Shown here piece by piece: positions 4,261 through 41,341 of a DNA stretch of 64,000 nt. A model generated the notes under the pieces. That model was given only the letters and a program-made list of their open reading frames with translations, had not been told where the DNA came from and ran no database searches. A program made the translations under genes and the position numbers. Source of the DNA: Octopus vulgaris (taxonomy: Eukaryota); the NCBI GenBank assembly GCA_951406725.2, contig OX597820.1:10602001-10666000 (forward strand). The letters run 5' to 3'. Position 1 is the first letter of the stretch; every line of letters starts with the position of its first letter.

Positions 4261-5722
4261 ACTCTTTCAGCCATGCGGCTGTGGTCATGCTGGAGCACAA
4301 CCATGGTCTTTCTGACTTCCTCAGTTTGGGTGTTTCACATCACCACTCCTATATGTACCTTTGTCCCAGCTGTTGGTTCATCCGGTATTGCGGAGAGGAG
4401 GATGTCTAGTTCCACTTTGAAGATATCTACTTCCACCTTATGCAAATTTGTTAATTTTTGTCGCACGGCATGGAAGAGCTGTGGGCCTTCGAACTCTAGA
4501 CTATTGCAGTAACCGCTCCTAAATTTAGACGGAGTGGATGGCACCAACGGTACTATACAATGGCGGCCAGTTCTGGCATTTGTATAACACTCAATGCCAA
4601 AGTCATGTACTAGCTTCTCTAGAGTTTTCCATATCTATATGATTGCCTATCTCCATCTCCATCGCTCCAGGAAGTAAAGTTGGAGCTTTCTCAGCCTATC
4701 CCTGTAGCTTATCTGCTGCGCTGTTTCAATCTTTTTAGTGTAGTGGCGTTGGACTGCTTTAAGCTCCGCTGTTAGTTTGGCACTATGCGGTGACTATAAC
4801 CGTGAGCAGTAGTCGAGGCGACTGAGGACAAAACTTCACCACAGGATCAAAATAATTTCTTGAACTCTTGTCTTGAAGGACCTTAGTATTCATCCTGCCA
4901 CTTGTCTGCACTTTGCTGCCATCTTGCTAATGTGCATATAAAATGATGCGTCATTGCACGTATTGATCCCCAAGTCTTTTACTGCTTGTGACTCTGGGAG
5001 TGTAGTGCCTTAGCGTCCTGTATATGTAGATTGTAATGTATTCATGAGTTGATCGTGCAGAGATTAAAAATGTCCAGCATTGAACTACATATTGTTTATT
5101 TGGCATACTTGTATATTGAATTTAGGTTCCGTTGTAAACTTGACATCATCTTACTTTTTTATTGCCTGTGATAATTTAGTATCGTCAGCATAGCTAGTGA
5201 CAGTGGCTGTCCGATTGACCGTGGACATGTCTAAGAGGGCTATTATGCACACTAATGGCCCTAGAACAGTTCCCTTTGGGACACCACTTAGGATTTGAGT
5301 TTCCTCAGGCTGCAGCTACCTGACTTCTGTTTTTAAGGAAGTCATGCAGCCACCGTCCCAGTTTATCAGCAATGCCAAGGTCTTGTAGCGTATGACGTAT
5401 CATGCCATGATTTACCTTATCAAATGCCTTTGCAAAGTCAAGGTATATCACACTGACATCTGAATGGTCAAGCAGCTGTTTCACAACCCAGTCATATTGC
5501 TGTGTATGGCAGCGTCTTCCTGGACGGAAGCCATGCTGTATATTGTTCAGTAAGTCATTTTCTTCTAGGAACATTATCAACTGCTTTCTGATGATTCGCT
5601 CCATGACTTTCCCGATATGTGAGGTCAGACGGATTGGATTTTAGTTTTTAGCCTCTGCTCTGCTTCCACATTTGTGGATAGGGCATATCATGCCTTCTTT
5701 CAGCTTTTTAGGAACTATACCA
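4261..5722 (-). mobile_element. 5'-truncated, decayed CR1-type LINE (RT domain and 3' end)
   Basis: Minus-strand peptides PIHKCGSR, QHGFRPGR, VIYLDFAKAFDKV, GVPKGTVLGP, YADDTKL and C-terminal IPDEP. Multiple stops and frameshifts. Confidence 0.88.
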
Positions 5723-12912: not shown

Positions 12913-13080
12913 TATTATTGTTGGTAAAACATTTTAAAACTAATATTTGTGCTAATTCCATGAAAACAAAGATGGAACAAGTTTACTCTCCGATCAAATA
13001 TTCTTGTTTAGTTCTCTTCATCTAGCGATTCCTTAATCAACCATCATAATACCGGAAGCATTGGTATATAATATATAACA

Positions 13081-13492
13081 AGGAACTTTAGCATCGAGAG
13101 TTACACAAATGCCAGAACTGGGCGCCACTGCGTGGTGCCAATGACTCCAAGTTTGCCATCAAGATGCAGGACAAGATACTGTGATAGCCTGGGCTTCAGA
13201 GGCCCACAGCTCTTCAATATCCTCCCGAAGAACCTGAGGGACCTGCATGGGGTGGATGCGGATGTCTTTAAAGTAGGACTGGATCTCTTCCTGTCAGGTG
13301 TCCCGGATGAACCAACTTCACGGCAGGAGGTGCAGATGAGGGCAGCTGCATCGAACTCTCTCATGCACCAAATGGCAGTTGCTAAAAAGCATTCGTGAAG
13401 TAAAATCATGTAGCAACACCAAATGGCGGTGCCCCAGCATGGCCACAGCTCGTGAGCTGAAACTAGATAAAATAAGAAAAATAAAATAAGAA
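13081..13492 (+). mobile_element. 3' end of a CR1-type LINE
   Basis: Peptide CDSLGFRGPQLFNILPKNLRDL...FKVGLDLFLSGVPDEP is homologous to the C-terminus of the 4261-5722 LINE. It is followed by a short 3' UTR with a stem-loop and an A-rich tail. Confidence 0.85.
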
Positions 13493-14065: not shown

Positions 14066-14217
14066 ACGTACGCAAATATCTATCTATCTATTTATCTATC
14101 TATCTATATATATATATATATATATATATATGTAGGTCCCGGGTTGATTCGGGGTTAACCACAGTAAGTAAGGTACTCAATACATAGCAGAGTAAAATTA
14201 ATTTATTATATAGAAGG

Positions 14218-14268
14218 AGCTTCTACAGGACTAGTACTGTTTCATTCAAGAGAAATCTTCAGGAAGCT
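14218..14268 (-). ncRNA. Type I hammerhead ribozyme (PLE copy A)
   Basis: Exact reverse complement of 23115-23165. Confidence 0.85.
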
Positions 14269-14764
14269 ATTTAACAAGAATTGTATTAGCATTTATACAT
14301 TTAGGCAGGTTTAAAGGAGTGGTGGTGGGGGACTTTTTGGGGGTAGGCATAGCGCAAAATATCATACTTGGGGGAGTGGTCAAGGAGTCAGTGGTAAGTA
14401 GATGAAAGAATAGATAAATAAAAAAATAAAAAAATAAAAAAATAAAAAAATAAAGAAATAAAAATAAAAAATAAAAAATAAAAAATAAAAAATAAAAAAT
14501 ATAAAAAATAAATAATAAATAATAAATAAAAAATAAAATATAAAAATAAAAAAATAAAAAATAAAAAAAAAAATAAAAAAATAAAATAAAATAAAATATA
14601 TAAAAAATATAAAAAATATATATAAAATATATATATAAAATATATATAAAAAATATATATATAAAAAGGGGGATAGAGTTATAGGTAAATAAGGAGATTC
14701 TCACTTATACCTATACACACATGTATACGTATCTACACACACATACATACATACACATATATAT

Positions 14765-14815
<51 letters not shown>

Positions 14816-15695
14816 CATATGTACACACATACATACATATCTACATACACACATACATACACCCGCCCACATATACAAATTTATACACATGCACATGCCT
14901 ATACCTGTCTACACATACACACACGTATATATGCATACACTCACTCCCATGCATGCACGCATACACACATGTATATATATATATATATATATACCCACGA
15001 CCACACATACATATATACACATAAAAATATATATTCATACGCACATACACTCATGCACACACAACACACCTAGTTCCCTATATACACATATTTACACCTA
15101 TATATACATACACCCACATACACCTATGTACACATATATATATATAAACATATACACGCATACATATATATACATGTGTGCACATACATACATACACACA
15201 TATATACATACACATACGCATACACATGTGTACCTATACATACCTACACATACACACATACATACATACAAATATACATATACATATATATATATACAAT
15301 CCAATACAGGCCCATTCCCTAATTTTAATTTTATTATCTTCATTTATTACTTTTGTTATCTTTGATCGCTAGGGCTAAGAATCCTGGCAATGGCTGCATG
15401 TCCATTTGTCTGTCTACTAGAAGGCAAGTACTCATTCCCGCACGCACACTCATTAGCACGTACATTCACCCATTCGTACACCCATACACATACACGTACG
15501 CACGCGTTATATTCATACATACCAACATCTACATACGTTCACGTATATACACATACGTACTCGTACCTACAGATTCGTGTCTACACTTTAGGAGGCTAGT
15601 CTATACATATACACCAATAAATATACATATATATATATATACCCATATATATACATACACATACACACATATATACTCCTACATACAGATACATA

Positions 15696-15753
<58 letters not shown>

Positions 15754-15943
15754 CATACACATACACACATACATATACACACACATACATACACATATAT
15801 ATACATACACAAACATATATACACACATATATATATACATACACACATACACACACACATACATACGTATACATACATACATACATCCATACATCCATAC
15901 TTACATGCATTTATACGCATACACACACCCATCTATATATATG

Positions 15944-15974
<31 letters not shown>

Positions 15975-16251
15975 TCACACATACATATACAAATCTACGC
16001 ACACACATACATACATACACGTATACGCATACACGCACATACACATATACATGCGTACCCATACACGTGCACACACGCACGCGCATCCATATATATACAC
16101 ACACACACATATATATACACGTGTGCAAGCATACATACATACTCATACGCGCACACATAATTACAAATACATATATGCACACACTTACACACATATATAT
16201 ACATACACATATACATGCATACATACATATATGCATACATACACACACGCA

Positions 16252-16297
<46 letters not shown>

Positions 16298-16573
16298 TAT
16301 ATACATATATAGATATATATACACATACATACACATACACATACATACACACATATACACACATATACATATATATATATATATATATACATATACACAT
16401 ACATATATACACATATACATACATATACATACACACACACATACATATATACATATACACTGATACACATACCCATACATACACATGCATATACTTATAT
16501 CACTACATACTCACATATATAAACATATATACATATACACACATACATATATACATGTACATACACATACGTA

Positions 16574-16613
<40 letters not shown>

Positions 16614-16761
16614 TATACACATATATACATATATACATACATACACACACACACACATACATATACACATATACATGTATACATACGCAAAAATGATACA
16701 CATATATACACATACACACACACAGACACACACAGATGCATATACATACATATATATATAC

Positions 16762-16792
<31 letters not shown>

Positions 16793-16970
16793 AATATATA
16801 CATATATATATAAATACATACATAATACACATATACACATATACACATATACACACACATATATATACATTCATGCATATACATATACAAGTATACATAC
16901 ACATACATACACACACACGCGCACACATACATATACACACACACATATACAAATACATACATACACACAT

Positions 16971-17013
<43 letters not shown>

Positions 17014-17334
17014 CATGTACACATATACATATGTATATATATATCAACAAGGGAGGGTAAAGTTAATTAGTTATTAATCAATTTCATCAAGTGTTCAGTA
17101 TGTAAAGGGACCATTATTATTTTGAGTAAACAATGTTAGAGGGAAAAAATTCTCTAAGTAGTGGAAGAGGCTAAAAAACTTTATTGGCTGCTATTTCTAG
17201 AAAGTTTAGTATGTGGCAAAGTAATTTATTTTATTTTCCTAAGCCCTAATTATATAATATTTTATACATACACATACATAACACATATACATACAAACAC
17301 ATATACACATATACACACACACACACATACAAGC

Positions 17335-17380
<46 letters not shown>

Positions 17381-17613
17381 GCAAATATATATACATATAT
17401 ATTTTTACATGCATACATACACACACACACACATAATACATGCGTATATTCCTACTGTACCCATGCATTTCTATACATATATACATACATACATACGATA
17501 CACATATACAAGCGTGCACATATAATATGTGAAAGGTCTTAGGAGAAAAGGTAATCGGGGGTGCTAGGGGAACAGTGGGGTTGGGGGGGTTTGGGGTTGT
17601 GGGGGGGTTGTCA

Positions 17614-18794
17614 TCAATCAGGTTGCCGGGTAGGTCTATAGTTCTTGTAGTTCGCATACTTCTTATGCATGCAATTTGGGGAGTGTTCTGAAAATTTGTT
17701 AAGGAGAGGGCCTTTGGCGAACAAGGTCTCTAGGCTCTCTGATATGCATAGGTCACAGCAGGTATGTCCTCCTGTGTACGAGCGCGCCTTCTGTAGTAGT
17801 TTCCACTTGGTCTTGAAGGGGATTGAGTTCCTTTTAAGGTACCAGATGTGGGCGGCGAGGGTAGTTTGGTTGGATTTATCCTGTCGCCGGAACGAGTGTG
17901 TATGTGCATACCAGCGGGTCTTAAAGCTGTTTGACGTCATTCCAATGTAGGATTTACTTTTATCGTCAAGGCCTGATCTTACCTCGCATTTATATACTAG
18001 GTCCCTCTGTAGGCAGTTGTTGTTGAGGGGGCAGGTGGTTTTATCATGGCAGTTGCAATTGCTATCGGACGTTGGATGGGCCCCGGAGAAAGTAGATATG
18101 TTAAGTTTTTTCACATTGTTGTTGGCTAGGTTCCTGGCTAGGTTGGGCGTAGTAGAGTAGGAGAGTCTAATAGTGTTCTTATTTAGGATAGTGTAGTACT
18201 TATGTTGGGTGGGGAAGTGTTTCTGTAGGAGAGTGAAAAAGATCTTAGCTACAGGTGTAGCGACCTCACGGTTGAAGGGGGGTTGTACCAGCTAATGTGT
18301 CTTCGTCTATTTTTCCTGGGTTGGCGTGGGGCTATACTAGTGTAGGTAATCTTATCTTTAAAACCACTGCGGGCCAGGGCCTCGTTGTAATAGGGGGCTG
18401 CGGCCCTAAAGATATCTTCCGTGGCGGACAGGCTAGAGATTCTAATTGAGACACTTTTTACTAGGTTATCTAATATATTTCTGGGGTGGTTGGAATTGAT
18501 ATCTATATATCTAAGGGATTCATTTGGTTTGTGGTACGGGTAATAAAGTGAGGTTTTTAAGTCGAGGGTGACATCTAGGAAGTTAGCCTTAGTTAAGTTG
18601 GATTCTAGGGTAATCCTAAGGCCTAAGTTTTTAAAGAAGGTGTGAAGATTTTTCCGGAACCCATCCGTGGTCCTGGGGTTTATATTGTGGAGGGCGAAAA
18701 GGCCGTCATCTCGGTAAAGACCACCGGAGAGGCCTGTGAATAGGGTTTTCAGCCTATGGAGGATGAAAAGGCCCACTAGGTCACTTATTTCAGC
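17614..18794 (-). pseudogene. Truncated PLE RT C-terminal half plus GIY-YIG endonuclease (copy A)
   Basis: ORFs 18249-18776 and 17614-18114, joined by a one-base shift in a C6 run. Confidence 0.9.
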
Positions 18795-19732
18795 TCACTT
18801 TATTACCCGTACCACAAACCAAATGAATCCCTTAGATATATAGATATCAATTCCAACCACCCCAGAAATATATTAGATAACCTAGTAAAAAGTGTCTCAA
18901 TTAGAATCTCTAGCCTGTCCGCCACGGAAGATATCTTTAAGGCCGCAGCCCCCTATTACAACGAGGCCCTGGCCCGCAGTGGTTTTAAAGATAAGATTAC
19001 CTACACTAGTATAGCCCCACGCCAACCCAGGAAAAATAGACGAAGACACATTAGCTGGTACAACCCCCCTTCAACCGTGAGGTCGCTACACCTGTAGCTA
19101 AGATCTTTTTCACTCTCCTACAGAAACACTTCCCCACCCAACATAAGTACTACACTATCCTAAATAAGAACACTATTAGACTCTCCTACTCTACCACGCC
19201 CAACCTAGCCAGGAACCTAGCCAACAACAATGTGAAAAAACTTAACATATCTACTTTCTCCGGGGCCCATCCAACGTCCGATAGCAATTGCAACTGCCAT
19301 GATAAAACCACCTGCCCCCTCAACAACAACTGCCTACAGAGGGACCTAGTATATAAATGCGAGGTAAGATCAGGCCTTGACGATAAAAGTAAATCCTACA
19401 TTGGAATGACGTCAAACAGCTTTAAGACCCGATGGTATGCACATACACACTCGTTCCGGCGACAGGATAAATCCAACCAAACTACCCTCGCCGCCCACAT
19501 CTGGTACCTTAAAAGGAACTCAATCCCCTTCAAGACCAAGTGGAAACTACTACAGAAGGCGCGCTCGTACACAGGAGGACATACCTGCTGTGACCTATGC
19601 ATATCAGAGAGCCTAGAGATCTTGTTCGCCAAAGGCCCTCTCCTTAACAAATTTTCAGAACACTCCCCAAATTGCATGCATAAGAAGTATGCGAACTACA
19701 AGAACTATAGACCTACCCGGCAACCTGATTGA
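18794..19732 (+). pseudogene. Truncated PLE RT thumb plus GIY-YIG endonuclease (copy B)
   Basis: Near-identical to 24498-25436; includes ORF 19232-19732. Confidence 0.9.
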
Positions 19733-19971
19733 TGACAACCCCCCCTACAACCCCCCCCTACAACCCCCCCCCAACCCCACTGTTCCCCTAGCACCCCCGA
19801 TTACCTTTTCTCCTAAGACCTTTCACATATTATATGTGCACGCTTGTATATGTGTATCGTATGTATGTATGTATATATGTATAGAAATGCATGGGTACAG
19901 TAGGAATATACGCATGTATTATGTGTGTGTGTGTGTATGTATGCATGTAAAAATATATATGTATATATATT

Positions 19972-20016
<45 letters not shown>

Positions 20017-20382
20017 GCTTGTATGTGTGTGTGTGTGTATATGTGTATATGTGTTTGTATGTATATGTGTATATATGTATATGCATATGTATGTGTAAAT
20101 GTATGTGCTTATGTATGTGTATGTATGTATAAAATATTATATAATTAGGGCTTAGGAAAATAAAATAAATTACTTTGCCACATACTAAACTTTCTAGAAA
20201 TAGCAGCCAATAAAGTTTTTTAGCCTCTTCCACTACTTAGAGAATTTTTTTCCCTCTAACATTGTTTACTCAAAATAATAATGGTCCCTTTACATACTGA
20301 ACACTTGATGAAATTGATTAATAACTAATTAACTTTACCCTCCCTTGTTGATATATATATACATATGTATATGTGTACATGT

Positions 20383-20420
<38 letters not shown>

Positions 20421-20553
20421 ATGTGTGTATGTATGTATTTGTATATGTGTGTGTGTATATGTATGTGTGCGCGTGTGTGTGTATGTATGTGTATGTATAC
20501 TTGTATATGTATATGCATGAATGTATATATATGTGTGTGTATATGTGTATATG

Positions 20554-20585
<32 letters not shown>

Positions 20586-20597
20586 TATATAGATATG

Positions 20598-20637
<40 letters not shown>

Positions 20638-20765
20638 ATATATATGTATGTATATGCATCTGTGTGTGTCTGTGTGTGTGTATGTGTATATATGTGTATC
20701 ATTTTTGCGTATGTATACATGTATATGTGTATATGTATGTGTGTGTGTGTGTGTATGTATATATG

Positions 20766-20813
<48 letters not shown>

Positions 20814-20987
20814 TACGTATGTGTATGTACATGTATATATGTATGTGTGTATATGTATATATGTTTATATATGTGAGTATGTAGTGATATAAGTATATGC
20901 ATGTGTATGTATGGGTATGTGTATCAGTGTATATGTATATATGTATGTGTGTGTGTATGTATATGTATGTATATGTGTATATATGTA

Positions 20988-21030
<43 letters not shown>

Positions 21031-21089
21031 ATATGTGTGTATGTATGTGTATGTGTATGTATGTGTATATATATCTATATATGTATATA

Positions 21090-21137
<48 letters not shown>

Positions 21138-21414
21138 TGCGTGTGTGTATGTATGCATATATGTATGTATGCATGTATATGTGTATGTATATATATGTGT
21201 GTAAGTGTGTGCATATATGTATTTGTAAGTATGTGTGCGCGTATGAGTATGTATGTATGCTTGCACACGTGTATATATATGTGTGTGTGTGTATATATAT
21301 GGATGCGCGTGCGTGTGTGCACGTGTATGGGTACGCATGTATATGTGTATGTGCGTGTATGCGTATACGTGTATGTATGTATGTGTGTGCGTAGATTTGT
21401 ATATGTATGTGTGA

Positions 21415-21453
<39 letters not shown>

Positions 21454-21627
21454 TGGGTGTGTGTATGCGTATAAATGCATGTAAGTATGGATGTATGGAT
21501 GTATGTATGTATGTATACGTATGTATGTGTGTATGTGTGTATGTATATATATATGTGTGTATATATGTTTGTGTATGTATATATATGTGTATGTATGTGT
21601 GTGTATATGTATGTGTGTATGTGTATG

Positions 21628-21681
<54 letters not shown>

Positions 21682-22561
21682 TATGTATCTGTATGTAGGA
21701 GTATATATGTGTGTATGTGTATGTATATGCGGGTATATATATATATATATATGTATATTTATTGGTGTATATGTATAGACTAGCCTCCTAAAGTGTAGAC
21801 ACGAATCTGTAGGTACGAGTACGTATGTGTATATACGTGAACGTATGTAGATGTTGGTATGTATGAATATAACGCGTGCGTACGTGTATGTGTATGGGTG
21901 TACGAATGGGTGAATGTACGTGCTAATGAGTGTGCGTGCGGGAATGAGTACTTGCCTTCTAGTAGACAGACAAATGGACATGCAGCCATTGCCAGGATTC
22001 TTAGCCCTAGCGATCAAAGATAACAAAAGTAATAAATGAAGATAATAAAATTAAAATTAGGGAATGGGCCTGTATTGGATTGTATATATATATATGTATA
22101 TGTATATTTGTATGTATGTATGTGTGTATGTGTAGGTATGTATAGGTACACATGTGTATGTGTATGTGTATGTATATATGTGTGTATGTATGTATGTGCA
22201 CACATGTATATATATGTATGCGTGTATATGTTTATATATATATATGTGTACATAGGTGTATGTGGGTGTATGTATATATAGGTGTAAATATGTGTATATA
22301 GGGAACTAGGTGTGTTGTGTGTGCATGAGTGTATGTGCGTATGAATATATATTTTTATGTGTATATATGTATGTGTGGTCGTGGGTATATATATATATAT
22401 ATATACATGTGTGTATGCGTGCATGCATGGGAGTGAGTGTATGCATATATACGTGTGTGTATGTGTAGACAGGTATAGGCATGTGCATGTGTATAAATTT
22501 GTATATGTGGGCGGGTGTATGTATGTGTGTATGTAGATATGTATGTATGTGTGTACATATG

Positions 22562-22612
<51 letters not shown>

Positions 22613-23296
22613 ATATATATGTGTATGTATGTATGTGTGTGTAGATACGTATACATGTGTGTATAGGTATAAGTGAGAATCTCCTTATTTACCTATAACT
22701 CTATCCCCCTTTTTTTATATATATATATTTTTATATATATATTTTATATATATATTTTTTTATATATATTTTTTATATTTTTTATTTTTTATTTTTTTAT
22801 TTTATTTTTTTTATTTTTTTATTTTTTTATTTTTTTATTTTTTTATTTTTTATTTTTTATTTTTTATTTATTATTTATTATTTATTTTTTATATTTTATT
22901 TTTTATTTTTTATTTTTTATTTTTTATTTTTTATTTTTTTTTTTTTATTTTTTTATTTTTTTATTTATCTATTCTTTCATCTAACTTACCACTGACTCCT
23001 TGACCACTCCCCCAAGTATGATATTTTGCGCTATGCCTACCCCCAAAAAGTCCCCCACCACCACTCCTTTAAACCTGCCTAAATGTATAAATGCTAATAC
23101 AATTCTTGTTAAATAGCTTCCTGAAGATTTCTCTTGAATGAAACAGTACTAGTCCTGTAGAAGCTCCTTCTATATAATAAATTAATTTTACTCTGCTATG
23201 TATTGAGTACCTTACTTACTGTGGTTAACCCCGAATCAACCCGGGACCTACATATCTTAGCACACCCTAGTGCCCTTATAACCATCACCAAGAAAA
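19733..23296 (+). repeat. PLE non-coding arm / pseudo-LTR (copy B), mostly cryptic (TA)/(TG)/(TATG) repeats plus a T-rich tract
   Basis: Repeated at 25437-28846 and inverted at 14128-17613, with the same order of landmarks. Confidence 0.9.
23115..23165 (+). ncRNA. Type I hammerhead ribozyme (PLE, internal copy)
   Basis: AGCTTC-CTGAAGA-T-TTC-TCTT-GAA-T-GAAA-CAG-TACTAGTC-CTG-TA-GAAGCT. 6-bp stem I, CUGANGA and GAAA cores, GUA triplet (predicted cut after 23159). Confidence 0.85.
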
Positions 23297-25436
23297 ATGC
23301 TGACAAGAATCGACCTCGACACTTCCCTGAAGAACATTACTATCCCACCAAGGAAACAGTACCAAAAGCCCTCATTAGACGGACTGATGAGTTCATCAAA
23401 AGAATTCGATGGAGATCTTTCTTCTTCGACAACCCTGATGTAGCATCTACCAGTAATGATAAGTACGGCTTCAAATCAAATAAGGCCCCTCCTACCAACA
23501 GCCTACTTGAACCGTTTGAAGAAGACCTCTTCCTCATGATAAAAAACATCAAATTCAGGAGAGTCAACTTACCTTTCCAAACGGAACTGAATGCGAAGCT
23601 TTCGAAAATGAAAAGCTCCCAGAACCTCCATGTCCCTTCGGACAAGACAAAAAATATTTACGCGGTGACTCCGGATACCTATAATAGACTAGCCGATAAC
23701 GCCATCACAGCTAAATACAAGAAAGTAGACGACGTAGCGCTAACTGAAACCAACTTGGCCGGGAAAGAGATTGCCACCTCCCTTAAAATCGACGACCGAA
23801 CAGAACCCCTGAGGGTGAAGTCCCCACACTTCACCCTGAAAGACCACAAAGACCATTTCGAAAATAAACCGTCGGTCCGTTTGATTAACCCAACCAAGTC
23901 TGACATCGGATCCGTCAGCAAGAAGATCTTGGACAGGATTTTACCAAAAATGCGTGAAGCTTCACCCCTTCCACTCTGGAATAGGACCTCCGAGGCAATA
24001 ACTTGGTTCCGGGATTTACCAGATAAAAGCAACACCCGATTCCTACAACTGGATATCGAGGATTACTACGCCTCTATATCGGAGAGCTTGCTGATCGATG
24101 CGATTAACTTCGCCAGGAGGTCCTCCACCATCACCGAGGCCGAGCAAGATGTGATCCTCCACGCACGTAAGACTTTTCTTTTCTATGACGGATCCCACTG
24201 GATCAACAAAAAATCTGTGACCCCCTTCGACGTCAGCATGGGTGCTAACGACTCTGCTGAAATAAGTGACCTAGTGGGCCTTTTCATCCTCCATAGGCTG
24301 AAAACCCTATTCACAGGCCTCTCCGGTGGTCTTTACCGAGATGACGGCCTTTTCGCCCTCCACAATATAAACCCCAGGACCACGGATGGGTTCCGGAAAA
24401 ATCTTCACACCTTCTTTAAAAACTTAGGCCTTAGGATTACCCTAGAATCCAACTTAACTAAGGCTAACTTCCTAGATGTCACCCTCGACTTAAAAACCTC
24501 ACTTTATTACCCGTACCACAAACCAAATGAATCCCTTAGATATATAGATATCAATTCCAACCACCCCAGAAATATATTAGATAACCTAGTAAAAAGTGTC
24601 TCAATTAGAATCTCTAGCCTGTCCGCCACGGAAGATATCTTTAAGGCCGCAGCCCCCTATTACAACGAGGCCCTGGCCCGCAGTGGTTTTAAAGATAAGA
24701 TTACCTACACTAGTATAGCCCCACGCCAACCCAGGAAAAATAGACGAAGACACATTAGCTGGTACAACCCCCCTTCAACCGTGAGGTCGCTACACCTGTA
24801 GCTAAGATCTTTTTCACTCTCCTACAGAAACACTTCCCCACCCAACATAAGTACTACACTATCCTAAATAAGAACACTATTAGACTCTCCTACTCTACCA
24901 CGCCCAACCTAGCCAGGAACCTAGCCAACAACAATGTGAAAAAACTTAACATATCTACTTTCTCCGGGGCCCATCCAACGTCCGATAGCAATTGCAACTG
25001 CCATGATAAAACCACCTGCCCCCTCAACAACAACTGCCTACAGAGGGACCTAGTATATAAATGCGAGGTAAGATCAGGCCTTGACGATAAAAGTAAATCC
25101 TACATTGGAATGACGTCAAACAGCTTTAAGACCCGCTGGTATGCACATACACACTCGTTCCGGCGACAGGATAAATCCAACCAAACTACCCTCGCCGCCC
25201 ACATCTGGTACCTTAAAAGGAACTCAATCCCCTTCAAGACCAAGTGGAAACTACTACAGAAGGCGCGCTCGTACACAGGAGGACATACCTGCTGTGACCT
25301 ATGCATATCAGAGAGCCTAGAGATCTTGTTCGCCAAAGGCCCTCTCCTTAACAAATTTTCAGAACACTCCCCAAATTGCATGCATAAGAAGTATGCGAAC
25401 TACAAGAACTATAGACCTACCCGGCAACCTGATTGA
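23297..25436 (+). CDS. PLE polyprotein: reverse transcriptase plus C-terminal GIY-YIG endonuclease (about 713 aa after repairing two single-base frameshifts)
   Basis: ATG at 23297 gives MLTRIDLDTSLKNITIPPRKQYQK. It shifts at the A4 run (23364-23367) into ALIRRTDEFIKRIRW...SDKT...QLDIEDYY...SMGANDSAE...LYRDDG...NFLDV...WYNPP. It shifts again at the C6 run (24768-24773) into FNREVATPVAKIFFTLLQKHFP...LSYSTTPN...CNCHDKTTCPLNNNC...LVYKC...YIGMT...CDLC...CMH. Confidence 0.88.
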
Positions 25437-25673
25437 TGACAACCCCCCCTACAACCCCCCAACCACCCCCCCAACCCCACTGTTCCCCTAGCACCCCCGA
25501 TTACCTTTTCTCCTAAGACCTTTCACATATTATATGTGCACGCTTGTATATGTGTATCGTATGTATGTATGTATATATGTATAGAAATGCATGGGTACAG
25601 TAGGAATATACGCATGTATTATGTGTGTGTGTGTGTATGTATGCATGTAAAAATATATATATGTATATATATT

Positions 25674-25722
<49 letters not shown>

Positions 25723-26080
25723 GCTTGTATGTGTGTGTGTGTGTATATGTGTTTGTATGTATATGTGTATATATGTATATGCATATGTATGTGTAAATGT
25801 ATGTGCTTATGTATGTGTATGTATGTATAAAATATTATATAATTAGGGCTTAGGAAAATAAAATAAATTACTTTGCCACATACTAAACTTTCTAGAAATA
25901 GCAGCCAATAAAGTTTTTTAGCCTCTTCCACTACTTAGAGAATTTTTTTCCCTCTAACATTGTTTACTCAAAATAATAATGGTCCCTTTACATACTGAAC
26001 ACTTGATGAAATTGATTAATAACTAATTAACTTTACCCTCCCTTGTTGATATATATATACATATGTATATGTGTACATGT

Positions 26081-26118
<38 letters not shown>

Positions 26119-26280
26119 ATGTGTGTATGTATGTATTTGTATATGTGTGTGTGTATATGTATGTGTGCGCGTGTGTGTGTATGTATGTGTATGTATACTT
26201 GTATATGTATATGCATGAATGTATATATATGTGTGTGTATATGTGTATATGTGTATTATGTATGTATTTATATAGATATG

Positions 26281-26324
<44 letters not shown>

Positions 26325-26674
26325 ATATATATGTATGTATATGCATCTGTGTGTGTCTGTGTGTGTGTATGTGTATATATGTGTATCATTTTTGCGTATG
26401 TATACATGTATATGTGTATATGTATGTGTGTGTGTGTGTATGTATGTATATATGTATATATGTGTATATATATGTATATATATATATATATATATATGCA
26501 TACGTATGTGTATGTACATGTATATATGTATGTGTGTATATGTATATATGTTTATATATGTGAGTATGTAGTGATATAAGTATATGCATGTGTATGTATG
26601 GGTATGTGTATCAGTGTATATGTATATATGTATGTGTGTGTGTATGTATATGTATGTATATGTGTATATATGTA

Positions 26675-26719
<45 letters not shown>

Positions 26720-26782
26720 ATATGTGTGTATGTATGTGTGTATGTGTATGTATGTATGTATATATATCTATATATGTATATA

Positions 26783-26830
<48 letters not shown>

Positions 26831-27320
26831 TGCGTGTGTGTATGTATGCATATATGTATGTATGCATGTATATGTGTATGTATATATATGTGTGTAAGTG
26901 TGTGCATATATGTATTTGTAAGTATGTGTGCGCGTATGAGTATGTATGTATGCTTGCACACGTGTATATATATGTGTGTGTGTGTATATATATGGATGCG
27001 CGTGCGTGTGTGCACGTGTATGGGTACGCATGTATATGTGTATGTGCGTGTATGCGTATACGTGTATGTATGTATGTGTGTGCGTAGATTTGTATATGTA
27101 TGTGTGAGTGTGTATATATATATATATATATATACATATATATAGATGGGTGTGTGTATGCGTATAAATGCATGTAAGTATGGATGTATGGATGTATGTA
27201 TGTATGTATACGTATGTATGTGTGTATGTGTGTATGTATATATATATGTGTGTATATATGTTTGTGTATGTATATATATGTGTATGTATGTGTGTGTATA
27301 TGTATGTGTGTATGTGTATG

Positions 27321-27370
<50 letters not shown>

Positions 27371-28248
27371 TATGTATCTGTATGTAGGAGTATATATGTG
27401 TGTGTGTGTATGTATATGCGGGTATATATATATATATATGTATATTTATTGGTGTATATGTATAGACTAGCCTCCTAAAGTGTAGACACGAATCTGTAGG
27501 TACGAGTACGTATGTGTATATACGTGAACGTATGTAGATGTTTGTATGTATGAATATAACGCGTGCGTACGTGTATGTGTATGAGTGTACGAATGGGTGA
27601 ATGTACGTGCTAATGAGTGTGCGTGCGGGAATGAGTACTTGCCTTCTAGTAGACAGACAAATGGACATGCAGCCATTGCCAGGATTCTTAGCCCTAGCGA
27701 TCAAAGATAACAAAAGTAATAAATGAAGATAATAAAATTAAAATTAGGGAATGGGCCTGTATTGGATTGTATATATATATATGTATATGTATATTTGTAT
27801 GTATGTATGTGTGTATGTGTAGGTATGTATAGGTACACATGTGTATGTGTATGTGTATGTATATATGTGTGTATGTATGTATGTGCACACATGTATATAT
27901 ATGTATGCGTGTATATGTTTATATATATATATGTGTACATAGGTGTATGTGGGTGTATGTATATATAGGTGTAAATATGTGTATATAGGGAACTAGGTGT
28001 GTTGTGTGTGCATGAGTGTATGTGCGTATGAATATATATTTTTATGTGTATATATGTATGTGTGGTCGTGGGTATATATATATATATATATACATGTGTG
28101 TATGCGTGCATGCATGGGAGTGAGTGTATGCATATATACGTGTGTGTATGTGTAGACAGGTATAGGCATGTGCATGTGTATAAATTTGTATATGTGGGCG
28201 GGTGTATGTATGTGTGTATGTAGATATGTATGTATGTGTGTACATATG

Positions 28249-28299
<51 letters not shown>

Positions 28300-28840
28300 A
28301 TATATATGTGTATGTATGTATGTGTGTGTAGATACGTATACATGTGTGTATAGGTATAAGTGAGAATCTCCTTATTTACCTATAACTCTATCCCCCTTTT
28401 TTTATATATATATATTTTTATATACATATTTTATATATATATTTTTTTATATATATTTTTTATATTTTTATTTTTTATTTTTTTATTTTATATATATTTT
28501 TTATTTTTTTATATTTTTATTTTTATTTTTATTTATTTTTTATTTATTTTTATTTTTATTTTTTATTTTTTATTTTTATTTTTTTTTTTATTTTTTTTTT
28601 TTATTTTTTTATTTTTTTATTTTTTTATTTATCTATTCTTTCATCTAACTTACCACTGACTCCTTGACCACTCCCCCAAGTATGATATTTTGCGCTATGC
28701 CTACCCCCAAAAAGTCCCCCACCACCACTCCTTTAAACCTGCCTAAATGTATAAATGCTAATACAATTCTTGTTAAATAGCTTCCTGAAGATTTCTCTTG
28801 AATGAAACAGTACTAGTCCTGTAGAAGCTCCTTCTATATA

Positions 28841-28846
<6 letters not shown>
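25437..28846 (+). repeat. PLE non-coding arm / pseudo-LTR (copy C)
   Basis: Direct repeat of 19733-23182. It ends at AATAAAT and runs into (TA)n. Confidence 0.9.
28779..28829 (+). ncRNA. Type I hammerhead ribozyme (PLE, terminal copy)
   Basis: Identical to 23115-23165. Confidence 0.85.
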
Positions 28847-28901
<55 letters not shown>

Positions 28902-29790
28902 TATATACATATACATATGCACAAATACAATACATATATGATAGTATGTGTCTGTGTATATGTGTATTTTCGTGTGTGTGTGTGTGCGTGCGTATGTTGG
29001 TTATCCATCACGAACTAATACAGCGATAATATGTGTTATTTCTTAGATGCATTGAATAAGTTTCAACATGTTTCAACGGCTTTTGCTGCTTTCATACCCC
29101 ATTTAATTCTGATGAAAATAATGGCTTTAGTCTTCGTGAATATTTCCTCAACTATAGCTTGCTCGTTTGCCTATTCATGCTCCTGCTGTGTTTAGAAGCC
29201 ATAACCTCCCTTATAAATCTGAAATTCTACAAAGCATTATCTTCTACCAATTATTTTCATGCTCCGAAGTGAATTCAGGATCCAAAGCCTTTCATAGAGT
29301 TGTTTTGAAGAAAATATTCTGTCTACCTAATAGTGTGAATTCCCCAACATAATTCCAAATTCACAGCTTGCTTGCTTACGCACAATTATTACAGAGCCTT
29401 CATAGAAAGTGTGCTCGCATAATGTGTTGCCTCTGCGCCCCGGGACTATATTGTTCAGCACCTTTATTCAACCAACGTATTGAAAACCTTTTCGACATTA
29501 TCTACGGGTCACATGCAAGTCGTGAACATTCATTTCAATTTTTTTTTCTGTACAAGAGACGCAGCAATCATAATCTCTGCAGAATTCTTCGTGTTGTCAG
29601 CATCAATACACTTCACGCTAAATTCGAATGCAGAATAGTTAATCTTTACGTATAGAAGTAACACTAGTGGTGATCACCCAGTTATTTGACTACAATATGT
29701 TGCTAGTCACTACGCGAATTCTTCCGATAGGTAATTCAAAGTAAGCTTCGCTGGACGACAAAAATTGTCTAAAGTATATAATAAAAACAA

Positions 29791-30190
29791 AGCGGCGAGC
29801 TGGCAGAATCGTTAGCACCCCGGTGAAATGCTTTGCAGTATTTCGTCTGCCGTTACATTCTGAGTTCAAATTCCGCCGAGGGCGACTTTGCTTTTCATCC
29901 TTTCGGGGTCGATTAAAAAGGTACCAGTTACGCACTGGGGTCGATATAATCGACTTAATCCCATTTGTCTGTCCTTGTTCGTCCTCTCTGTGTTTAGCCC
30001 CTTGTGGGTAGTAAAGGAATAGGTATTTCGCCAGTCGCTACATTCTGAGTTCAAATTCCGCCGAGGTCGACTTAGCCTTTCATTCTTTCGAGGTCGATAA
30101 AATTAGAACCAGTAAAACACTGGGGTCGATGTAATTGACTAGTCCCCTCCACTACAATTTTCAGACTCTGCGTCTGAAGTAGAAAGGATT
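29791..30190 (+). mobile_element. tRNA-derived SINE family D, dimeric
   Basis: A box TGGCAGAATCG, B box GAGTTCAAATTCC. The body repeats after the junction GTAGTAAAGGAATAGGTATTTCG. Confidence 0.85.
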
Positions 30191-40689: not shown

Positions 40690-41341
40690 TGGCGGCGAGC
40701 TGGCAGAATCGTTAGCATGCTGGGCGAAATGCTAAGCGGTGTTCGTCTGCAGTTACGTTCTGAGTTCAAATTCTGCCGAGGTCGACTTTACTTTTCATCC
40801 TTTCGGGGTCGATAAATTAAGTACCAGTTACGCACTGGGGCCGATGTAATCGACTTAACACCTATGTCTGTCCTTGTTTGTCCCCTCTATGTTTAGCCCC
40901 TTGTGGGTAGTGAATAAATACGTATTTCGTCTGCCGCTACGTTCTGAGTTCAAATTCCACCGAGATCGACTTTACTTTTCATACTTTCGGGGTCGATAAA
41001 TTAAGTACCAGTTACGCACTGGGATCGATGTAATCGACTTAATACCCATGTCTGTCCTTGTTTGTCCCCTCTTTGTTTAGACCCTTGTGGGTAGTAAAGA
41101 AATAGGTATTTCGTCTGCCGCTACATTCTGAGTTCAAATTCCACCGAGATCGACTTTACCTTTCATACTTTCGGGGTCGATAAATTAAGTACCAGTTACG
41201 CACTGGGGTCGATGTAATTATACCAAAATGATTATCAAAACCTTTAGAGTTACGCACTGGGGTCGATATAATCGATTTAATCCCTTTGTCTGTCCTTGTT
41301 TGTCCTCTCTGTGTTTAGCCGCTTTTGGGCAATAAAGAAAT
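40690..41341 (+). mobile_element. SINE family D multimer (one head, three-plus bodies)
   Basis: Body of about 180 bp repeated. 16-bp TSD TATATTCACCTGTCTC at 40674-40689 and 41342-41357. Confidence 0.9.

Follow-up and report, generated by a model that had tools for sequence, protein, structure and literature searches.

Penelope-like elements (PLEs) leave a recognisable insertion layout, in which a partial tandem is joined by an inverted 5' copy, with a tail on one side only (Craig et al. 2021, PMC8557442). There the Hydra clade is characterised by DKT, RWK and CxCx5C motifs, a C-terminal nuclease and a hammerhead ribozyme; Naiads have their nuclease N-terminally, together with DKA and a CxC domain, and lack a hammerhead. 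The 27 listed Hydra families span 1.1-3.0 kb and are generally shorter than 3 kb, a tendency that is not diagnostic; short families without a repeat arm insert in (TA)n, and in Hydra-1_Obim, a family published from octopus, the 3' region is short and free of microsatellite (PMC8557442). Here we describe an element at positions 14128-28846 of a 64,000-nucleotide (nt) stretch of the Octopus vulgaris genome (assembly GCA_951406725.2, contig OX597820.1, forward-strand positions 10,602,001 to 10,666,000), hereafter the window, in whose coordinates all positions are given. With a probability of roughly 0.7, we read it as a young insertion of a Hydra-clade PLE carrying a 3.3-kb, mostly microsatellite 3' non-coding region, the arm, which is likely a family trait and likely copied first at each jump.

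Self-alignment resolved the insertion into three copies of the element with a period of 5,704 bp, flanked by (TA)n, as follows.

14105-14127, no strand: (TA)n target on the left side, beside a (TATC)n run (from the sequence)
14128-18794, minus strand: copy A, inverted and 5'-truncated, with the 3' part of the open reading frame (ORF), the whole arm, the hammerhead and the 73-nt tail, that is, the long end (self-alignment)
18794-23255, plus strand: copy B, direct and 5'-truncated, a 4.5-kb pseudo-long terminal repeat (pseudo-LTR) with a 1-nt overlap at the join with copy A (self-alignment)
23256-28846, plus strand: copy C, a near-whole unit finishing at the short end (self-alignment)
28847-28899, no strand: (TA)n target on the right side (from the sequence)

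The copies are mutually 96.8-98.0% identical over 4.4-4.65 kb, and the three-copy structure with a 5.7-kb period that an earlier note on this DNA had described is thus borne out. Its statement that the unit was copied three times holds for the arm, which all three copies contain, but not for the ORF, which is present whole (2,140 nt) only in copy C; copy A is truncated at the point corresponding to 24256 and amounts to 0.82 unit, copy B at the point corresponding to 24498 and to 0.78 unit. The 73-nt tail ends copies A and B and is absent from copy C, and the right side of the insertion measures 10,053 nt, or 1.76 units. This layout matches the published Penelope insertion pattern. Because both outer ends lie in (TA)n, a target duplication is unreadable. 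With only 3-5 substitutions between copies per 1,751 unique bases, the insertion is by all sequence indications young, with an estimated age of at most about 0.4 million years (Myr) at the rate of 0.0036 per Myr used in PMC13282606; the earlier claim of a young PLE inserted in (TA)n accordingly agrees with both the flanks and the divergence. Around the A/B inversion junction (18776-18810), a similarity of about 10 nt between the flanking sequences may reflect homology used in a template switch.

The coding part of the unit is a single frame.

23297-25436, plus strand: single ORF of about 713 amino acids (aa), with reverse transcriptase (RT) motifs RWR, DKT, YRDD and WYNPP, a CxCx5C linker and, at the C-terminus, a GIY-YIG nuclease (motifs, homologues and structure model)

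Its order is RT (RIRWR, SDKT, YRDDG, WYNPP), CxCx5C linker, nuclease. A homologue search returned 1,899 matches, the top two 52% and 48% identical, and in the 104 full-length homologues the same motifs recur: RW[KR] in 89 (here RIRWR, an RWK variant, at P0001 12-16), DK[TS] in all 104 (SDKT at P0001 91), CxCx5C after YRDD in 99 (P0003 76-84) and W[FY]NPP in 101. The nuclease core spans LVY to YIG and contains one unconserved Cys and no Cys pair. A model of the C-terminal 222 aa (mean predicted local distance difference test score, pLDDT, 87.5) superposes on I-TevI with Z 9.1 and a root-mean-square deviation of 2.7 over 89 residues, and resembles T4 EndoII (Z 7.2) and UvrC (Z 6.2); Foldseek ranks the same family first, but at E 0.08. 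On the strength of this model, the C-terminal domain is a predicted GIY-YIG nuclease. Neither of the two ORF pieces matched a relevant Pfam family; one homologue matched RVT_1, below the cut-off. A PDB sequence search gave no match.

Two homopolymers in the ORF of copy C, near 23363 and near 24767, each contain a 1-nt frameshift; the second one is common to all three copies. In contigs of four public runs, one from each of four studies (X1, X8, X10 and X11), which were compared with 22985-25545 and with a unique island in the middle of the arm, an additional A is found at 23363 in X1 and X11, and an additional C at 24767 in all four. Since both frameshifts are missing from the main public contigs in most runs, the family in its main form probably has an uninterrupted frame of about 713 aa; the frameshifts seen here are probably assembly errors or private to this insertion. 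Such homopolymer frameshifts suggest uncorrected consensus errors, and one may ask whether long-read errors also duplicated a copy or folded it back, all the more as the A/B junction at 18794 is not seen in other data. We consider this highly improbable, given that each copy has its own private changes, that the outer flanks of the arms differ, that the layout with its asymmetric tail is the published PLE pattern, and that contigs in X1, X10 and X11 span the junction from tail to ORF.

The earlier note had called the element a Naiad on the basis of DKT, W(F/Y)NPP and CxCx5C. In PMC8557442, DKT and CxCx5C occurring together with a hammerhead and a nuclease at the C-terminus characterise Hydra, and Naiad identity was ruled out by the C-terminal position of the nuclease, DKT instead of DKA and the presence of a hammerhead. 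Among the Hydra traits we find the C-terminal GIY-YIG domain, RW[KR], DKT, CxCx5C, the hammerhead and (TA)n on both flanks; the short length (<3 kb) is not among them, as the unit measures 5,704 bp. From domain order, motifs, hammerhead and (TA)n, with reference proteins compared by eye, we assign the element to the Hydra clade.

The hammerhead and the ends of the family lie close together.

14218-14268, minus strand: type I hammerhead of copy A (pattern match)
23115-23165, plus strand: copy B's type I hammerhead, whose core CTGAAGA lies at 23121; stem I has 6 bp and cutting is predicted after 23159 (pattern match and Hydra table)
28779-28829, plus strand: type I hammerhead of copy C (pattern match)
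23183-23255, plus strand: 73-nt tail from the short end (23182/23186) to the long end (23255), both of which join (TA)n in other copies of the family
23190-23210, plus strand: first hairpin after the hammerhead, an ACTC..GAGT variant of the conserved GCTC..GAGCAC (alternative fold)
23260-23273, plus strand: second hairpin, a GCAC..GTGC variant, immediately beyond the long end

The hammerhead pattern with a 6-bp stem I is present in 3/3 copies, in the form given in the published Hydra table. A search of 18700-29000 against Rfam yielded 253 matches, and among the best 150 of these there was no hammerhead; nearly all were microsatellite-like microRNA models below their gathering scores. As a control we used 77 related loci from metagenome contigs, of which 64 have a detectable stop codon and 37 of those 64 a hammerhead downstream. 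The GCTC..GAGCAC hairpin lies within 220 nt of 39 of the 54 related-locus hammerheads with enough downstream sequence (two hairpins in 23), as against 109 of 2,310 random windows of the related loci. In the octopus element, the two fixed family ends sit a few bases before two small hairpins, both of which carry paired changes relative to the GCTC..GAGC stem (ACTC..GAGT in one, GCAC..GTGC in the other), a covariation that supports a structural signal next to the fixed ends.

What sets the element apart is the sequence between stop codon and hammerhead.

25437-28784, plus strand: 3,348-nt non-coding arm, from stop codon to hammerhead core, with a C-rich start (from the sequence)
25531-25829, 26048-27454 and 27771-28339, plus strand: TG/TA/TATG blocks
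25830-26047, 27455-27770 and 28340-28400, plus strand: unique islands of the arm, copy C
28401-28630, plus strand: T tract of the arm
21754-22088, plus strand: unique mid-arm island of copy B, with many variant contigs in 4/4 public runs

From the stop codon to the right end there are 3,410 nt, of which 2,505 nt are simple repeat (299 + 1,407 + 569 nt and a 230-nt T tract), the rest being unique islands and the hammerhead. The earlier note had made up the unit from a 2.1-kb ORF, about 3.4-3.5 kb of ordered repeats and a T-rich tract of about 270 nt; a repeat arm inside the unit is indeed what we find, with a shorter T tract, a smaller share of simple repeat, and the islands and an overlooked hammerhead in the remainder. 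Its estimate that about 10 kb of largely simple-repeat DNA was deposited compares well with the sum of the three arms, about 10.3 kb, of which about 7.5 kb is simple repeat. The longest block, about 1.4 kb, is four times the longest in the 49-kb flanks (335 nt), and 32 of 32 mixed repeat runs of the arm are in TG orientation against 25 of 53 in the flanks, runs being not independent of one another. Perfect runs of at least six TA units number 45 in the insertion and 62 in the 49-kb flanks. As the islands match across copies at 99.4-100% identity and nowhere else in the window, the agreement between copies is not a product of low-complexity chance; islands 2 and 3 show no coding resemblance to the homologues. 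Construction of the arm from recent internal duplications was excluded, as only 1 of 1,163 rare 14-mers recurs within it.

In the 37 related loci with both stop codon and hammerhead, the spacer between them is 30-516 nt long (median 109) and free of microsatellite, compared with 3,348 nt here, and the arm islands have no match in any of the 77 loci. Judged by these sequences and by the listed Hydra families, the arm appears exceptional. One Hydra-like locus (L018, 2415-4146) extends about 1.6 kb past its stop codon; the extension includes a minisatellite rich in GT and an internal duplication that is partial, and it closes with a degenerate hammerhead-like end running into (TA)n. This second swollen 3' region means that swelling is not unique to the octopus element.

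The public contigs bear on whether the arm belongs to the family or to this insertion. The mid-arm island was matched by 13, 13, 651 and 32 contigs in the four runs, in many variants, one of them a 313-nt contig with 32 differences (about 10%); variants of the ORF diverge similarly, by 10-14% (29/252 and 18/190 differences). Contigs extend from the ORF across the stop codon into the start of the arm in X1, X8 and X11, and no joint of the ORF end to the hammerhead occurs among the matches listed for the four runs. Contigs ending at 23182/23186 and at 23255 run into (TA)n, up to 12 and 37 of them, respectively. Truncation at the 5' end predicts depth rising toward the 3' end, and summed contig depth, which is not copy number, climbs from ORF 5' through ORF 3' and island to hammerhead in X1, X8 and X10, three of the four runs. 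Since the island is found in variant contigs of all four runs, one of them 10% diverged, the repeat arm is probably a family trait. One X1 contig departs from the stretch at 23108, just ahead of the hammerhead, and goes on into a hammerhead-like core of a different kind, which suggests a related family with another ribozyme.

Several observations weigh against the reading of the element as a Hydra-clade insertion whose arm is a family trait. Minimum-energy folding does not yield the hammerhead (z 0.1-0.6). Among the control loci, 27 have a stop codon without a detected hammerhead and 13 have no detected stop, and as short-read contigs break in long repeats, the 37-locus control is biased. The additional A at 23363 is absent in X10, and X8 has no coverage there. 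Depth in X11 shows no 3' climb (island 1.1-4.6k against 3-18k, again depth and not copy number). No contig links ORF, island and hammerhead in another copy, and the island could be a separate repeat; the check proposed in the earlier note, whether other copies carry the arm and insert in (TA)n, is to this extent answered only in part, by the island in four of four runs and by family ends that join (TA)n. Finally, among the matches listed are contigs in which the sequence ahead of the hammerhead differs (before 23115, in X8 as well as X11, and before 23024/23036), which means that the hammerhead end also exists without the T tract.

The last two points are also what would be expected if a short Hydra element had recently read into, or recombined with, a microsatellite-rich stretch ending in a hammerhead stub, the arm then being confined to a small sublineage. 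Such a chimera would explain why the arm, with its repeat blocks and unique islands, resembles host DNA, and the short 3' region of Hydra-1_Obim is in keeping with it. We nevertheless regard it as unlikely: island and ORF variants are both about 10% diverged, a short joint of ORF to hammerhead is missing among the matches listed, and the block length and TG orientation of the arm differ from those of the flanks.

Possible functions of the arm were also weighed. The earlier note had proposed that it might help the RNA anneal to (TA)n; this finds no support, as short Hydra families without an arm insert in (TA)n, making it unnecessary for such targeting, and the family ends are fixed after the hammerhead. 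More broadly, the arm might be under selection as a retained intron, a spacer for hammerhead timing, a pseudo-LTR promoter or an annealing aid. The order of its landmarks is conserved, the island has been kept across about 10% divergence, and PLEs are described as retaining introns and as having a promoter in the pseudo-LTR (PMC8557442). Relatives, however, function with about 100 nt in this place and target (TA)n, the arm slips freely, with a 43-nt deletion in copy A, and the family ends lie outside it, so that selection on the arm seems to us improbable. Most likely it is a tolerated passenger, grown and decayed in place by slippage.

On the basis of PLE biology, the GIY-YIG nuclease would nick a (TA)n target, and the RT would start near the 3' end of the RNA, at two points just before the hairpins, and would copy the hammerhead, then the arm and then the ORF. 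The 1.76 units of the right side call for a template exceeding one linear unit; read-through tandem RNA, which is slightly favoured, a circle and a template jump are the candidates. Alleles at 21856 and 21897 in copy B (15523 and 15482 in copy A) are shared by A and B and rare or absent in public contigs, copy C having the majority form. They fit a linear tandem RNA on which priming of copy A was internal, at the long end, but they would also fit conversion between the inverted arms. With the arm lying 3' of the ORF, truncation would in most cases leave a microsatellite block that has a hammerhead cap and no ORF. The insertion took up one (TA)n site and leaves 45 perfect TA runs behind, which could become new insertion targets.

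Should these steps apply, a PLE RT would have copied, in a single run, a template of about 10 kb made up largely of simple repeat, as the right side suggests; the element would illustrate a route by which a microsatellite-targeting element multiplies its own targets, and copy-specific alleles would offer a handle on whether PLE templates are linear tandem RNA or circles. The predicted consequence is that annotation misses some truncated transposon copies, which would have the form of long compound microsatellites with a hammerhead at the end. A stronger version, in which a self-seeding retroelement has carried a multi-kilobase arm for millions of years, copying it first and making its own (TA)n targets, with most copies being ORF-less, hammerhead-capped blocks missed by short-read assembly and annotation, is speculative, and we would not bet on it; if it were true and other Hydra families were alike, a sizeable share of compound microsatellites would be retrotransposed DNA and not local slippage. 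The suggestion in the earlier note that the element helps explain the repeat load of the genome is probably overstated for one family, as the flank microsatellites are without any arm island, and the arms of a single family, in the tens to hundreds, would make up a small share of the microsatellite of a large genome.

Elsewhere in the window, a 184-bp unit is repeated 2.6 times at 40742-41218, and a similar SINE-like repeat (SINE, short interspersed nuclear element) lies near 29820-30120. Fragments at 5305-5640 and 13072-13398 resemble ORFs that we take to be those of old long interspersed nuclear element (LINE) reverse transcriptases.

In the literature searched, including PMC13282606, which annotates 30 recently active Penelope families in Octopus vulgaris at about 5.5 kb per insertion on average, an arm of several kilobases was not found in any Hydra element; subscription journals, Repbase/Dfam and the consensus library of PMC13282606 may hold the family. 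With the Hydra clade of PMC8557442, including Hydra-1_Obim, the element shares a single ORF of about 710 aa with RWK-type, DKT and CxCx5C motifs, a C-terminal GIY-YIG nuclease without CCHH, a canonical hammerhead, (TA)n insertion and a tandem and inverted layout with a tail. It differs in its 5.7-kb unit, 3.3-kb microsatellite arm and 73-nt tail, the published families having 1.1-3.0 kb and tails of 30-40 nt; hammerhead and protein, compared by eye, differ from those of Hydra-1_Obim and indicate a different family. Naiads share the PLE layout and the (TA)n preference, whereas the nuclease position, DKA, CxC domain and missing hammerhead are theirs only (PMC8557442). In Chlamys PLEs, length is raised by internal or 3' tandem repeats, a likeness across different clades, and a Physarum consensus has a (CA)n run after its ORF (PMC8557442). 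In penaeid shrimp, recent Penelope copies lie in synteny with microsatellites that moved along with them (PMC7878876); the passages do not state clade, arm length or hammerhead position, and microsatellites travelling with the element are the shared feature, so that with Penelope carriers of microsatellites already in print the surprise is limited. CR1-L3 and Rex LINEs seed microsatellites in snakes from their 3' part (PMC6050309); what they carry is a single motif at the 3' tail, whereas the octopus element carries kilobases of mixed repeat inside, its own target motif included.

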